Assembly: GCF_003334785.1 (NCBI RefSeq)
Contig: NZ_QOWV01000003.1
Reading direction: 5' to 3' (one strand)
From: Escherichia coli
Lineage (GTDB): Bacteria; Pseudomonadota; Gammaproteobacteria; Enterobacterales; Enterobacteriaceae
DNA length: 64,000 bases
A program made the position numbers and the translations under genes. Shown one piece after another: positions 34,839-58,243 of the stretch; positions within the stretch are counted from its first letter, which is position 1, and every line of letters begins with the position of its first letter. Under the pieces are notes generated by a model that was not told the origin of the DNA, searched no databases, and saw only the letters and a list, made by a program, of their open reading frames with translations.

Positions 34839-34866
34839 AAGATAAGGTGTATTTTAAATGCATCTT
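34839..34866. promoter_or_regulatory. NsrR operator-like inverted repeat in ytfE promoter (AAGATAAGGTGTATTTTAAATGCATCTT)
   Basis: AT-rich imperfect palindrome 22-50 bp upstream of ytfE start; ytfE is an established NsrR target. Confidence 0.55.
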
Positions 34867-34924
34867 TAAGGCAAATGCTATAACCCTTACGTAGCAGAGG
34901 CTTATTTAACTCACTGCCAGTATG

Positions 34925-35899
34925 TCAACTTTCTGAGACAGATTCAGTTAAAGGCTTTTCCGGTTTTGCTCTGACTGCAATGACCACGCCAACCACTAAC
35001 AGCGCGATACCGCTCAGCGTCATCAGCGGCGGCATTTGCTGGCGTATCAAAAAGGTGTACAGCAAACCTGCCAGTGTTTCGAAAACGATCAGCGGCCCGA
35101 GAATCACTGTCGGTAATCGCTGGCTGGCGACGTTCCAGCAGAGTGCGCCAACCCATGAGCAAAGCACGGCTATCGCAACCATCAGACTAATAAACACCAG
35201 CGGACGGGGGCCAAAAGGTAAGGAGAAGTCCGGCGTTTGTATATTCAGCCAGTAACAGGCGACGAGATAGCCGATGAGAGAAACCGGCAGCGTGACCAGC
35301 GCCTGCGCCGTCGCCCACATCATCGGATGTTTGTCGGGATTTTCCCGCAGCCAGCGGGCGTTGCGCAGGGCATACCATGCCCAGCAGACCACGGAAACTA
35401 ACGCTAGCACGATGCCAGAGGTATAACGTGCCCAGTCAAAATCGGGGAGTCCGTGGTTTAACTCAGCAATATTCACACACGCCAGGCCGATGCCAATACA
35501 AATCAGTGCCGGGGCGAGTTTTCCCCACGCGAGTTTGCCGTCGCGCTGGCTATAAAGCAGATTGGCAAAGACAGGAATGACCACCGGCAGGGTGCCAATA
35601 ATCATCGTAGAAACAGGCGCGCCAGTACGTTGAATGGCACTGGCAAGGCAGAAGTAATAGATGAGGTTGCCCATCATAGTGAGCATCAAGGCGGTAAGCC
35701 AGTCGCGACGCGCCAACTGACGCAGACGCACGCGTCCCAGCCAGGCAATGGGTAGCGCAATTAACCCTAACGCCAGATAACGCCCCATCGACTGCAACAT
35801 CGCCGGGTATTCCGGCACGATCAACGGCCCGACAAAAATAAGCCCCCACATCAACCCTGCTAACAGGGCGTACAGCACGCCGCTAATCATTACTGGCAT
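34925..35899 (-). CDS. ytfF: DMT/EamA-family inner membrane transporter
   Basis: 324-aa hydrophobic ORF recognised as YtfF. Confidence 0.85.
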   Translation of the reverse strand: MPVMISGVLYALLAGLMWGLIFVGPLIVPEYPAMLQSMGRYLALGLIALPIAWLGRVRLRQLARRDWLTALMLTMMGNLIYYFCLASAIQRTGAPVSTMIIGTLPVVIPVFANLLYSQRDGKLAWGKLAPALICIGIGLACVNIAELNHGLPDFDWARYTSGIVLALVSVVCWAWYALRNARWLRENPDKHPMMWATAQALVTLPVSLIGYLVACYWLNIQTPDFSLPFGPRPLVFISLMVAIAVLCSWVGALCWNVASQRLPTVILGPLIVFETLAGLLYTFLIRQQMPPLMTLSGIALLVVGVVIAVRAKPEKPLTESVSES

Positions 35900-35998: not shown

Positions 35999-36859
35999 CT
36001 ATTTATTAACATTAAAAAGATGGCTTACGCTTTCGGCTAACGTTGTCGTTGGGCGGCCAATCAATTTGCTCAGCGTTTTGCTGTCATCAAACAGACCGCC
36101 TTTCGATGCGCCAACGTCAGAATCCGCCAGCATATCCGCCAGTCCGTCAGGCAGGCCAACGCTTTTCAGCGCCGCAGCGAAATCGGTTTCGCTCAGATTT
36201 TGATAGGTAACCTGTTTGCCGCTCTGTTTGGTCAGCTCTGCCGCTAACTGTGTCAACGTCCAGGCACTATCGCCCGCCAGCTCGTAAACCTTGCCTTCGT
36301 GACCGGCTTCGCTAATCACGCGTGCCGCAGCTGCCGCATAATCTGCCCGCGTTGCCGAGGCAATTTTGCCATCGCCCGCGGCACCGATAAATACGCCGTG
36401 CTCCAGTGCTGCCGGGGCGCTGGCGAGATAGTTTTCGGTGTACCAGCCGTTGCGCAGCAGGGTGTAAACGATGCCAGAATCAGCCAACATTTTCTCCGTC
36501 TCGATGTGCTCATCGGCGAGGCCGAGCGGAGATTTATCCGCGTGAAGCAGACTGGTATAAGCGATAAATTTCACGCCAGCCGTCTTTGCGGCATTAATAA
36601 CATTACGATGCTGCGGGGCACGTTGACCCACTTCGCTGGAAGAGATCAGCAGTAGTTTTTCCACTCCCTGAAGTGCAGATGTCAGTGCGGCTTCATCGCC
36701 GTAGTCAGCCTGACGCACGGTAATGCCTTGTGCTGTCAGTGCCTGGGCTTTTGCCGGATTACGAACGATAGCCACTATTTGGCTGGCAGGAACCGTTTTC
36801 ATCAAGGATTTAATAACATAGTGACCAAGTTGGCCAGTGGCACCAGTAATAGCGATCAT
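35999..36859 (-). CDS. ytfG: NAD(P)H:quinone oxidoreductase (NmrA-like)
   Basis: 286-aa ORF with N-terminal Rossmann motif (ITGATGQLG); recognised as YtfG/QorB. Confidence 0.9.
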   Translation of the reverse strand: MIAITGATGQLGHYVIKSLMKTVPASQIVAIVRNPAKAQALTAQGITVRQADYGDEAALTSALQGVEKLLLISSSEVGQRAPQHRNVINAAKTAGVKFIAYTSLLHADKSPLGLADEHIETEKMLADSGIVYTLLRNGWYTENYLASAPAALEHGVFIGAAGDGKIASATRADYAAAAARVISEAGHEGKVYELAGDSAWTLTQLAAELTKQSGKQVTYQNLSETDFAAALKSVGLPDGLADMLADSDVGASKGGLFDDSKTLSKLIGRPTTTLAESVSHLFNVNK

Positions 36860-36907
36860 GGGAAGTCTCCATCGTTTTGTCTTGTGTTTAAATACGCTAA
36901 CACCTAA

Positions 36908-36943
36908 ACTTACTTTTAGTAAGTACGTACAAAAAGGTAAGTA
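36908..36943. promoter_or_regulatory. candidate HxlR-type operator repeats in ytfG-ytfH divergent region (ACTTAC-N5-GTAAGT, GTACGTAC, second GTAAGTA)
   Basis: Inverted/direct repeats of TACTTAC/GTAAGTA read from sequence just upstream of ytfH start. Confidence 0.3.
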
Positions 36944-36947
36944 TGAA

Positions 36948-37328
36948 ATGAGTCAGGTTAGCCTGTCACAACAACTGAAAGAGGGTAATCTCTTTGCGGA
37001 ACAGTGCCCGTCGCGCGAGGTGTTGAAACACGTCACCAGCCGTTGGGGGGTGTTGATTCTGGTGGCGCTACGCGAAGGTACTCATCGCTTTAGCGACCTG
37101 CGGCGCAAAATCGGTGGGGTGAGTGAAAAGATGCTTGCGCAGTCGTTACAGGCGTTAGAACAGGATGGTTTTCTTAACCGTATCGCGTATCCGGTGGTGC
37201 CGCCGCATGTGGAATATAGCCTCACGCCGCTGGGCGAGCAGGTGAGCGAAAAGGTTGCTGCACTGGCGGACTGGATTGAGTTGAATTTGCCCGAGGTGTT
37301 GGCGGTGCGGGATGAACGTGCGGCATAA
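36948..37328 (+). CDS. ytfH: HxlR-family transcriptional regulator
   Basis: 126-aa product from ATG 36948; ORF-track start at 36837 is an extension; recognised as YtfH. Confidence 0.88.
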   Translation: MSQVSLSQQLKEGNLFAEQCPSREVLKHVTSRWGVLILVALREGTHRFSDLRRKIGGVSEKMLAQSLQALEQDGFLNRIAYPVVPPHVEYSLTPLGEQVSEKVAALADWIELNLPEVLAVRDERAA

Positions 37329-56869: not shown

Positions 56870-58243
56870 ATGCGCATTCATATTTTAGGAATTTGTGGCA
56901 CGTTTATGGGCGGTCTGGCGATGCTGGCGCGCCAGTTAGGCCATGAAGTAACGGGTTCGGACGCCAATGTGTATCCGCCGATGAGCACCTTACTTGAGAA
57001 GCAAGGCATTGAACTGATTCAGGGTTACGATGCCAGCCAGCTCGATCCGCAGCCGGATCTGGTGATTATTGGCAACGCCATGACCCGTGGAAATCCGTGT
57101 GTGGAAGCGGTACTGGAAAAAAACATCCCTTATATGTCAGGTCCACAGTGGCTGCACGATTTTGTGCTGCGCGACCGCTGGGTGCTGGCCGTTGCCGGTA
57201 CACATGGCAAAACCACCACCGCGGGAATGGCAACCTGGATTCTGGAACAGTGCGGTTACAAACCGGGATTTGTGATCGGCGGTGTGCCGGGGAACTTTGA
57301 GGTTTCGGCGCGTCTGGGCGAAAGCGACTTCTTTGTTATCGAAGCGGATGAGTATGACTGCGCCTTCTTCGACAAACGCTCTAAATTTGTCCATTACTGC
57401 CCACGTACGCTGATCCTCAACAACCTTGAGTTCGATCACGCCGATATCTTTGACGACCTGAAAGCGATCCAGAAACAGTTCCACCATCTGGTGCGTATCG
57501 TTCCGGGGCAGGGCCGTATTATCTGGCCAGAAAACGACATCAACCTGAAACAGACCATGGCGATGGGCTGCTGGAGCGAGCAGGAGCTGGTGGGTGAGCA
57601 GGGGCACTGGCAGGCGAAAAAGCTGACCACCGATGCTTCCGAATGGGAAGTTTTGCTGGATGGCGAAAAAGTGGGCGAAGTGAAATGGTCGCTGGTAGGC
57701 GAACATAATATGCACAATGGCCTGATGGCGATTGCGGCGGCTCGCCATGTTGGTGTAGCGCCGGCAGATGCCGCTAACGCGCTGGGTTCGTTTATTAACG
57801 CTCGTCGCCGTCTGGAGTTGCGTGGTGAAGCGAATGGCGTCACGGTATATGACGATTTTGCCCATCACCCAACGGCGATTCTGGCAACGCTTGCGGCGCT
57901 GCGTGGCAAAGTTGGCGGTACGGCGCGCATTATTGCCGTGCTGGAACCGCGCTCGAATACCATGAAAATGGGGATCTGCAAAGACGATCTGGCACCTTCA
58001 TTAGGTCGTGCCGATGAAGTCTTCCTGCTGCAACCGGCGCATATTCCGTGGCAGGTGGCAGAAGTGGCAGAAGCCTGCGTTCAGCCTGCACACTGGAGTG
58101 GCGATGTGGATACGCTGGCAGATATGGTGGTGAAAACCGCTCAGCCTGGCGACCATATTCTGGTGATGAGCAACGGCGGTTTTGGTGGGATCCATCAGAA
58201 ACTGCTGGATGGTCTGGCGAAGAAGGCGGAAGCCGCGCAGTAA
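56870..58243 (+). CDS. mpl: UDP-N-acetylmuramate:L-alanyl-gamma-D-glutamyl-meso-diaminopimelate ligase
   Basis: 457-aa ORF with Mur-ligase P-loop (GTHGKTTT) recognised as Mpl. Confidence 0.93.

Follow-up and report, generated by a model that had tools for sequence, protein, structure and literature searches.

The qorB-ytfH locus and its regulator

The analyzed window is a stretch of 64,000 nt of Escherichia coli DNA (contig NZ_QOWV01000003.1), and the present study deals with the spacer between its divergent genes qorB and ytfH, which contains a candidate operator of 35 bp for the regulator YtfH. The window is part of the E. coli chromosome; a query of 751 bp around the element was matched in 5414 of 5426 complete E. 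coli genomes, and the two flanking genes are annotated as qorB and ytfH. In the RefSeq annotation of the identical DNA, qorB (formerly ytfG) encodes an NAD(P)H:quinone oxidoreductase and ytfH a winged-helix regulator. According to the list of open reading frames (ORFs) and RefSeq, qorB extends from 35999 to 36859 on the minus strand, with its ATG at 36857-36859; the Pfam domain NmrA on divergent homologues assigns it to the NmrA family. The gene is presumed to be the regulated target. On the plus strand, the ytfH ORF at 36948-37328 encodes a winged-helix regulator of the HxlR/DUF24 family with 126 amino acids and a single cysteine at position 20, an assignment based on PF01638 and on phmmer searches against the PDB. 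The spacer between the two genes (36860-36947) has a length of 88 bp and is identical to that of K-12 MG1655 (4,434,025-4,434,112), and no features are annotated inside it in RefSeq.

To obtain a sample of the Enterobacterales, a protein-guided scan with one genome per species was used, which yielded 80 loci, with a range of genera that extends from Escherichia to Proteus and Morganella. Together with the E. coli reference locus (L001), 81 species loci were available, and in 79 of them qorB and ytfH diverge from a common spacer of about 90 bp. The domain PF01638 (HxlR) was present on the YtfH clusters and on all distant homologues. With phmmer, YtfH was matched to the solved proteins HxlR, HypR (YybR), YodB, YtcD, and YdzF; the Salmonella orthologue corresponds to PDB entry 1yyv. 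Cys20 of YtfH was aligned with the sensor cysteine of HxlR (chain residue 14), and the sequence C20-P21-S22 turned out to be invariant in 10 homologues, down to an identity of 48%. Exactly one cysteine, at position 20, was found in all 81 of the 81 YtfH orthologues. Some of the orthologues from Citrobacter have been named "Redox-sensing transcriptional regulator QorR" by NCBI.

In a full-text literature search, YtfH was listed only as an uncharacterized factor, with the exception of one preprint of December 2025. The operator sequence was not found in print in this search, and a literature search for reports on operators of other HxlR-family members in Proteobacteria yielded nothing useful. 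The preprint (bioRxiv 10.64898/2025.12.20.695731) describes in a supplementary note that targeting of ytfH by CRISPR interference (CRISPRi) led to an increase of qorB with a log2 fold change of 4.6 (about 24-fold), qorB being the sole differentially expressed gene, and divergent regulation of ytfH and qorB is proposed there.

Repeats, conservation, and half-sites of the spacer element

An earlier note on this DNA had listed repeated motifs in the spacer, all of which were recovered at their positions. The sequence ACTTAC-N5-GTAAGT is located at 36908-36924 and is better read as a perfect 7-3-7 inverted repeat (ACTTACT/AGTAAGT). The palindrome GTACGTAC is found at 36923-36930, and two copies of GTAAGTA are present at 36919-36925 and 36937-36943, the second 18 bp after the first. 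The heading under which these repeats had been summarized, TACTTAC/GTAAGTA, was correct for GTAAGTA, but the left copy reads AACTTAC and not TACTTAC, and an exact inverse copy exists only for the 6-mer or for the shifted 7-mer ACTTACT. A further inverted pair, ACTTACTTTT at 36908-17 and AAAGGTAAGT at 36933-42, matches at 9 of 10 positions.

To estimate how often such repeats arise by chance, the 88-bp spacer was shuffled 5000 times with its dinucleotides preserved. Of the shuffled sequences, 13% contained a perfect inverted repeat of 7 bp or more, 19% a 6-mer present three times, and 4.5% both. In the 64-kb window, GTAAGTA is present six times compared to 3.0 expected occurrences, and 0.07 matches per window are expected for the 17-bp palindrome pattern at up to two mismatches. 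The repeats were judged to be non-random because of their conservation across species, which is very strong, and not because of the statistics of the single sequence.

The conservation was very unevenly distributed over the spacer. Across the 79 Enterobacterales species with the divergent arrangement, the left half was strongly variable, whereas 36909-36944 was nearly invariant. Noticeable variation within this block was confined to 36911 (T/A), 36927/28 (G/A and T/C), 36939 (A/T), and 36943 (A/G), and thus mostly to exchanges of the W, R, or Y type. For comparison, the third-codon positions of ytfH in the same genomes had a mean of 0.91 bits, and only 3% of them were invariant. The conserved block is as constrained as second-codon positions.

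The internal structure of the block became apparent from more distant loci. YtfH homologues with identities of 54-69% were taken from a library clustered at 50% and were mapped onto their contigs. Wherever a divergent NmrA-family (qorB-like) gene was present, the spacer again carried the element, and the four hexamers and their spacing were kept, while the intervening spacers were altered. Among these orthologues, the first spacer occurred as TTTTA, TTTTG, CTTTC, TTAAA, or AAAAG and the second as AAAAAG, TTTTTG, ATAAAG, CTGAAG, or ATTCTT. Three of the loci may serve as examples, namely L082 (GCTTAC-TTTTG-GTAAGT ACGCAC-TTTTTG-GTAAGT), L084 (GCTAAC-CTTTC-GTAAGT ACGTAC-AAAAAG-GTAAGT), and L091 (GCTATC-AAAAC-GTAAGT ACCCAC-ATTCTT-GTAAGT). 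As the spacers change while the hexamers persist, the element can be described as four hexamer half-sites within 35 bp (36908-36942), which would form two abutting pseudo-palindromes, RCTWAC-N5-GTAAGT followed by ACnYAC-N6-GTWAGT.

The first of them is the predicted operator O1 (36908-36924; ACTTAC-TTTTA-GTAAGT in E. coli), which coincides with the perfect 7-3-7 inverted repeat. Among the 79 species, its left and right half-sites, at 36908-13 and 36919-24, show either no variation or W exchanges. The predicted operator O2 (36925-36942; ACGTAC-AAAAAG-GTAAGT) directly abuts O1, and its right half-site at 36937-42 can be extended to GTAAGTAT, which ends at 36944. The strong half-sites, GTAAGTAC in O1 and GTAAGTAT in O2, are direct repeats with a constant spacing of 18 bp in every orthologue examined, and the distance between the centers of the two half-sites of one operator is 11 bp in O1 and 12 bp in O2. 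The extended consensus sequences read RCTWAC-N5-GTAAGTAY and ACnYAC-N6-GTWAGTRT, and the element corresponds to K-12 positions 4,434,073-4,434,107. Hence, the motifs of the earlier note were real, but the extent that it had assigned to the element was too small, and the palindrome GTACGTAC, which it had treated as an independent element, is the junction of the right half-site of O1 and the left half-site of O2. Two homologues with about 50% identity and another gene context (P0148 and P0159) had no such motif upstream, and they were treated as non-orthologous.

The association of the element with the two genes was also analyzed by a metagenome scan with the pattern GTAAGTACNNACNNNNNNGTWAGT, which represents only the right three half-sites and had at least 120 matches. 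Among the 120 matches listed, 94 had at least one of the two genes as a neighbor, with the ytfH-like gene in the same orientation and the qorB-like gene divergent; both were present at 80 of them, and 26 matches adjoined neither. A ytfH-like gene was present in 89 of the 120. The left half-site of O1, which is absent from the pattern, was found (RCTWAC at five or more of six positions) in 82 of 89 unique matches with this gene context, compared to 1 of 25 matches without it. In 72 unique distant sequences, the columns of the left half-site contained A47/G23, C63, T58, A33/T36, A63, and C63, and the spacers were weakly conserved, the 5-bp spacer of O1 being T-rich and that of O2 A-rich.

These data bear on the question whether the element could be a genuine operator, but one for a different protein than YtfH. 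The listing of ytfH in the preprint among the regulators that have no previous binding data would leave room for another binder. However, the element accompanies a ytfH-like gene in the 89 listed metagenome matches and in all 81 species loci, and its shape fits the operators of the HxlR family. It also stays beside ytfH after the loss of qorB. In Lelliottia nimipressuralis CCUG 25894 (L043, 856-1933) and Enterobacteriaceae RIT714 (L054, 790-1867) qorB is missing, and O1 has been kept next to ytfH. In L043, O1 is a perfect ACTAACTTTTAGTTAGT palindrome; O2 has decayed in this locus only (7 of 31 positions changed) and is nearly intact in L054. By eye, no likeness to the NsrR, FNR, Fur, LexA, or marbox consensus was recognized. 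Binding by a different regulator is therefore regarded as very unlikely, and YtfH is the preferred candidate.

Several further observations were made at these and related loci. In L043 and L054, ytfH is preceded by two ORFs on the same strand with a CPYC (DsbA-like) and a WCGVC (thioredoxin-like) motif, respectively. Three metagenome matches without clear ytfH/qorB context (L132, L136, and L183) contained clusters of three or four copies of GTAAGT/ACTTAC; L136 has GGTAAGTACTTACC plus AAGTAAGTAAG beside an HxlR gene with 41% identity, and L183 has GCGTAAGTAAGTACTTACTCACATGTAAGTGAGTGCTTAC. More distant HxlR paralogues with a related specificity may have their operators in these clusters. Two loci with HxlR genes of 38% identity (L102 and L115, the latter also with an NmrA-like gene of 30% identity) have GTAAGTACGCAC-TTTTTT-GTAAGT in common and do not have the RCTWAC left half-site, which suggests that the pair of strong half-sites outlasts the palindromic partner in evolution. 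In CP093323.1 (L086, 2389-3426), the start of a second HxlR-family gene is separated by about 200 bp from a divergent gene for a short-chain dehydrogenase, at a distance of only 1.5 kb from the ytfH-like/NmrA pair. These two genes seem to form a further pair of regulator and oxidoreductase with this design.

A second good operator site was found neither in the 64-kb window nor within 2 kb on either side of the orthologous loci, which was the extent of the scan. The only other operator-like match in the window was ACTCACTGCCAGTATGT at 34909-34925, with two mismatches (0.07 expected). The stop codon of ytfF directly precedes this match, and ytfE starts about 95 bp farther downstream; it is probably a chance match. 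An AT-rich inverted repeat (AAGGTGTATTTTAAATGCATCTT, at about 34845-34867) is located nearby, which resembles the NsrR box of ytfE.

Predicted promoters and translation signals at the element

The left half of the spacer contains a few bases that were kept in the 79 species, namely 36894 (A), 36897-99 (CTA), and 36901-02 (CA), so that the qorB strand reads TG-n-TAG-nn-T. In TGnTAnnnT, the TG, the TA, and the final T were invariant in 79 of 79 species, while the neighboring bases vary. In the distant set (n = 72), T was found at -21 in 69, A at -20 in 65, and A at -25 in 59 sequences, which corresponds to TAnnnT on the qorB strand. This motif was located exactly 8 bp to the left of O1 in 74 of 89 distant loci, compared to 3 of 25 controls, and the TG extension was specific for the Enterobacterales. 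TGnTAnnnT at a fixed and conserved position is the pattern of an extended -10 element of sigma-70 promoters, and thus the putative qorB promoter was assigned to the sequence TGtTAGCGT at 36894-36902 on the minus strand. Transcription of qorB would then start near 36887 (about 4,434,052 in K-12), and a -35-like hexamer, TTACTA at 36917-36922 on the minus strand, would follow from the geometry with a spacer of 17 bp and would be located inside the right half of O1. In this arrangement O1 would occupy about -21 to -37 of qorB, over the -35 region and the promoter spacer, and O2 about -38 to -55. Between the predicted start site and the gene, a Shine-Dalgarno (SD) motif of qorB, GGAGA, was recognized at 36866-36870 on the minus strand, the columns 36867-36870 of which were kept in 68 to 77 of the 79 species.

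For ytfH, a promoter can be proposed tentatively and with low confidence at 36887-36916 on the plus strand, consisting of a -35 hexamer TTTAAA (36887-92), a spacer of 18 bp, and a -10 hexamer TACTTT (36911-16) in the left half of O1. The -35 candidate reads TTGTGG in most species, the TT at 36887-88 being invariant, and the distant loci have a weak TGA signal and a WACTTT element at this site. As O2 is directly followed by the start codon of ytfH in many species, the core promoter of ytfH must overlap or precede O1. The supplements on transcription start sites (TSS) of Kim 2012 and of Cappable-seq had no entry for ytfH, qorB, or the coordinates of the locus. In a genomic SELEX (systematic evolution of ligands by exponential enrichment) study, the spacer between qorB and ytfH was selected by the RpoD holoenzyme alone, and it was classified as a constitutive-promoter site (PMC3946193).

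Two further promoter candidates were rejected. The qorB promoter printed in PMC3946193 (TCGACA-15-TACATT) is absent in and near the spacer, and the only match with one mismatch in the window is located at 57369. A match of the promoter scan on the minus strand, GTGACA-18-CATACT at 36969-36940, was dropped, as its -35 hexamer lies within the variable N-terminal coding region of ytfH and is not conserved.

The element also overlaps with signals for the translation of ytfH. An SD motif, AAAGG, and an apparently ancestral ATG (36943-45) are located at 36933-36945 on the plus strand, in the spacer and the right half-site of O2. Enterobacter, Klebsiella, Kluyvera, and others have this ATG as the start of the ytfH ORF; in the three named genera only the first ATG is present, and Citrobacter has the two ATGs in the same frame. 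The ancestral ATG, which is part of GTAAGTATG, is out of frame in Escherichia and Pseudocitrobacter. In E. coli it opens a mini-ORF of two codons (ATG AAA TGA, 36943-36951, plus strand), the stop codon of which overlaps with the annotated ytfH ATG at 36948 (ATGA). The sequence comparison, with GTATGAAAATGAC in Citrobacter versus GTATGAAATGAGT in Escherichia, points to a loss of one nucleotide in the Escherichia lineage as the origin of the mini-ORF. These observations suggest possible translational coupling or a site of reinitiation.

In the Enterobacterales, the 35 bp would thus also carry the -35-like hexamer of qorB, the probable -10 element of ytfH, AAAGG, and the ancestral ATG, and the overlap of promoter, SD motif, and start codon with the operator would help to explain why the block is nearly invariant in this order. 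It might be argued that the block consists of these overlapping core-promoter, SD, and start-codon signals only and does not contain a dedicated transcription factor site, in line with the selection of the spacer by the RpoD holoenzyme alone (PMC3946193). However, such signals do not need four copies of one hexamer at a fixed spacing, and GTAAGT, the best-conserved sequence, matches the -10 and -35 consensus sequences poorly. In L082 and L091 the ATG of ytfH is located well downstream of the last GTAAGT, having moved by 10-25 nt, and the hexamers persist; the conservation of the last GTAAGT is therefore not explained by the SD motif and the start codon alone. The hexamers also persist where the spacers, including AAAGG, have been replaced (TTTTTG, ATTCTT). 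A combination of promoter and translation signals as the sole content of the block is highly improbable, and an operator overlapping with these signals is preferred.

Local RNA structures were considered as a further explanation, because the repeats could also act in the transcript. Pairing of ACUUACUUUU with AAAGGUAAGU in the leader would sequester the SD motif of ytfH, and a 7-bp ACUUACU/AGUAAGU hairpin would be the alternative. Two mutually exclusive pairings are indeed available in the sequence, and the minimum-free-energy fold of 36900-36965 forms the helix that sequesters the SD motif. However, when both strands were folded, the energies were no better than those of shuffled sequences (z = -0.88 and +0.47). 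Covariation was not observed: among 29 protein-ascertained blocks, an A-A mismatch was the most common state, with 17 blocks for hairpin 1 and 16 for hairpin 2, and the W changes on the two arms were independent. The left arm is probably located at or upstream of the ytfH TSS, and in distant loci the left arms degrade while GTAAGT is kept. Rfam gave no match; only a sub-threshold hit to Trp_leader was obtained (36929-37044, minus strand; 17.3 bits versus a gathering threshold of 41; E = 0.6), which overlaps with the ytfH start and is regarded as chance. A leader hairpin as the reason for the conservation is barely credible, and the DNA operator is retained as the explanation.

The operator model and its relation to known systems

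Taken together, the 35-bp element at 36908-36942 is most likely a dual operator to which YtfH binds and from which it represses qorB. This agrees with the earlier note, which had read the motifs as an operator and had proposed that the regulator controls its neighbor. The former is in congruence with the conserved spacer core in 79 Enterobacterales species and dozens of distant lineages, paired with ytfH-like and qorB-like genes. The latter is in congruence with the overlap of the motifs with the conserved -10/-35 geometry of qorB and with the increase of qorB upon CRISPRi of ytfH in the preprint. Two further proposals of that note also proved correct. The layout of an HxlR-family regulator gene next to a divergent quinone oxidoreductase gene was confirmed by PF01638 on YtfH and by the divergence in 79 of 81 loci. 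The membership in a family of redox or electrophile sensors is backed by the HxlR domain and by the invariant single cysteine that aligns with the sensor cysteine of HxlR.

In the proposed mechanism, two YtfH dimers would probably sit side by side on O1 and O2, each of them contacting one strong half-site (GTAAGTAY) and, at a distance of about one helical turn, a weaker half-site in inverted orientation. The dimer on O1 would cover the -35 region and the promoter spacer of qorB together with the probable -10 region of ytfH, and the dimer on O2 would be located in the leader of ytfH. Bound YtfH would block RNA polymerase at both divergent promoters, and it would thus repress qorB and probably also itself. 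If Cys20, which is located at the start of helix 1, were modified, the repression would be released and the quinone reductase induced, by analogy with YodB, QorR, HypR, and HxlR; the cysteine might be S-alkylated by quinones or further electrophiles, or it might be oxidized. HxlR-family relatives respond to quinones, diamide, hypochlorite, or aldehydes via an N-terminal cysteine (PMC3351151, PMC8063818), and a corresponding response of YtfH to electrophiles, oxidants, or aldehydes may be expected by analogy. The analysis shows the element with its half-sites, its tight coupling to the pair of ytfH and qorB, the geometry of the promoter, and the family features of YtfH; the direct binding, the stoichiometry, the autoregulation, and the inducing signal are inferred.

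Several points weigh against this interpretation. The repeats of E. coli alone are only marginally non-random (joint shuffle p of about 0.05), and some of the invariance in the Enterobacterales must stem from the overlapping promoter, SD, and start-codon functions and not from the operator alone. The promoter positions, in turn, were deduced from conservation only. Degenerate left half-sites, namely GCTGAC and GCTATC, occur in the most distant loci, which makes the model with two symmetric dimers uncertain. In the preprint (bioRxiv 10.64898/2025.12.20.695731), ytfH is listed among the regulators without previous binding data, and the effect of CRISPRi on qorB was observed in only about 4% of the cells. 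A dCas9 roadblock near overlapping divergent promoters could itself disturb the expression of qorB. Finally, the sign of the regulation cannot be read from the family, since HypR and HxlR are activators.

The last point leads to a dual or activating role of YtfH, in which the unmodified protein would repress from O1, and O2, centered near -46 of qorB, would be the site of an activator after modification, as for HypR and HxlR. For HypR, the activating box is located upstream of the promoter of hypO, and its autorepression proceeds from a box further downstream (PMC3351151); by the predicted geometry O2 would be at the classical distance of an activator from the qorB promoter. It fits to this possibility that L043, which lacks qorB, has a decayed O2 and a perfectly palindromic O1. 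However, L043 is a single case, and L054, which also lacks qorB, keeps O2 nearly intact; the changes in L043 also weaken the SD motif of ytfH, and the gene may be decaying. Furthermore, the strong rise of qorB upon knockdown of ytfH needs repression only. A dual role of this kind is thus unlikely. A more elaborate variant is similarly doubtful: head-to-tail dimers on the direct-repeat half-sites would constitute a redox-dependent bidirectional switch, with O1 repressing both promoters, and Cys20-modified YtfH on O2 activating qorB and throttling its own synthesis. If it were true, the presence of the operator, two core promoters, an SD motif, and a start codon in the same 35 bp would explain the near-total invariance in the Enterobacterales. 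Simple repression of qorB by YtfH at the dual operator remains the favored model.

YtfH is one of the remaining transcription factors of E. coli K-12 that have neither a defined binding site nor a defined signal. The analysis offers an operator model that is precise to the base, a predicted qorB promoter, and Cys20 as a candidate sensor residue, and it thereby turns a hint from single-cell CRISPRi into a mechanistic and testable hypothesis for an orphan regulator. The motif can be used in genome scans for further members of the regulon across many Proteobacteria. The type of switch is an ordinary one, of which the site had previously not been defined; it involves no new principle and would not surprise a specialist.

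The features that are typical of HxlR/DUF24 systems were found at the locus, i.e., the HxlR domain, a conserved cysteine at the N-terminus of the first helix, and a short inverted repeat that overlaps with the predicted promoter, its half-sites being spaced by about one helical turn. The arrangement is that of QorR, with an HxlR-family gene adjacent and divergent to a gene for an NmrA-type quinone oxidoreductase, the repression being taken from the literature.

The founding member of the family is HxlR of Bacillus subtilis, the regulator of hxlAB, the sensor cysteine of which aligns with Cys20 of YtfH. HxlR reportedly uses two tandem binding regions of 25 bp, which would parallel the tandem of O1 and O2. 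In contrast to the quinone reductase gene next to ytfH, its target is the operon of the ribulose monophosphate (RuMP) pathway, and HxlR is a formaldehyde-activated activator with a Cys-Lys crosslink (PMC7835342). HypR (YybR) of B. subtilis, the regulator of hypO, shares the HxlR/DUF24 fold family, an inverted-repeat box, the presence of boxes at the target and at its own gene, and an oxidoreductase as target. Its operator is a 7-2-7 inverted repeat (PMC3351151), and the phmmer ranges (query 17-115 versus chain 11-109), which give ranges only, place Cys20 of YtfH in the region of Cys14 of HypR. HypR differs in that it activates hypO from an upstream box via a Cys14-Cys49' disulfide, whereas the putative YtfH operator overlaps with the promoter and knockdown derepresses the target.

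YodB of B. subtilis and QsrR of Staphylococcus aureus are dimeric winged helix-turn-helix repressors of the DUF24 type that sense quinones with an N-terminal reactive cysteine at the start of a helix, and the family features of YtfH are alike. S-alkylation by quinones or the formation of a disulfide leads to their release. The operator of YodB is TACT-N7-AGTA, which is read in consecutive major grooves (PMC8063818). O1 of E. coli contains TACT-N7-AGTA at 36911-36925, and the half-sites share an ACT/AGT core. However, the T at 36911 that completes this match is an A in 56 of the 79 species, and the conserved symmetry RCTWAC-N5-GTAAGT is in another register. YodB also has a second cysteine (C101) for disulfide switching, whereas YtfH has only one, and the targets of YodB are not divergent around a dual operator.

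Another close parallel is QorR of Corynebacterium glutamicum with its neighbor qor2 (qorA), which resembles YtfH-qorB in the location of a DUF24/HxlR regulator beside a quinone oxidoreductase gene. As far as its description in PMC3351151 goes, QorR is a repressor of the adjacent quinone oxidoreductase gene that senses diamide and H2O2. QorR belongs to a phylum other than that of YtfH, and the architecture of four GTAAGT half-sites has been defined for the proteobacterial YtfH group only. QorR is said to rely on a single cysteine, and YtfH likewise has exactly one. The YtfH-qorB system is a probable Gram-negative counterpart of the quinone-response switches of QorR and YodB.

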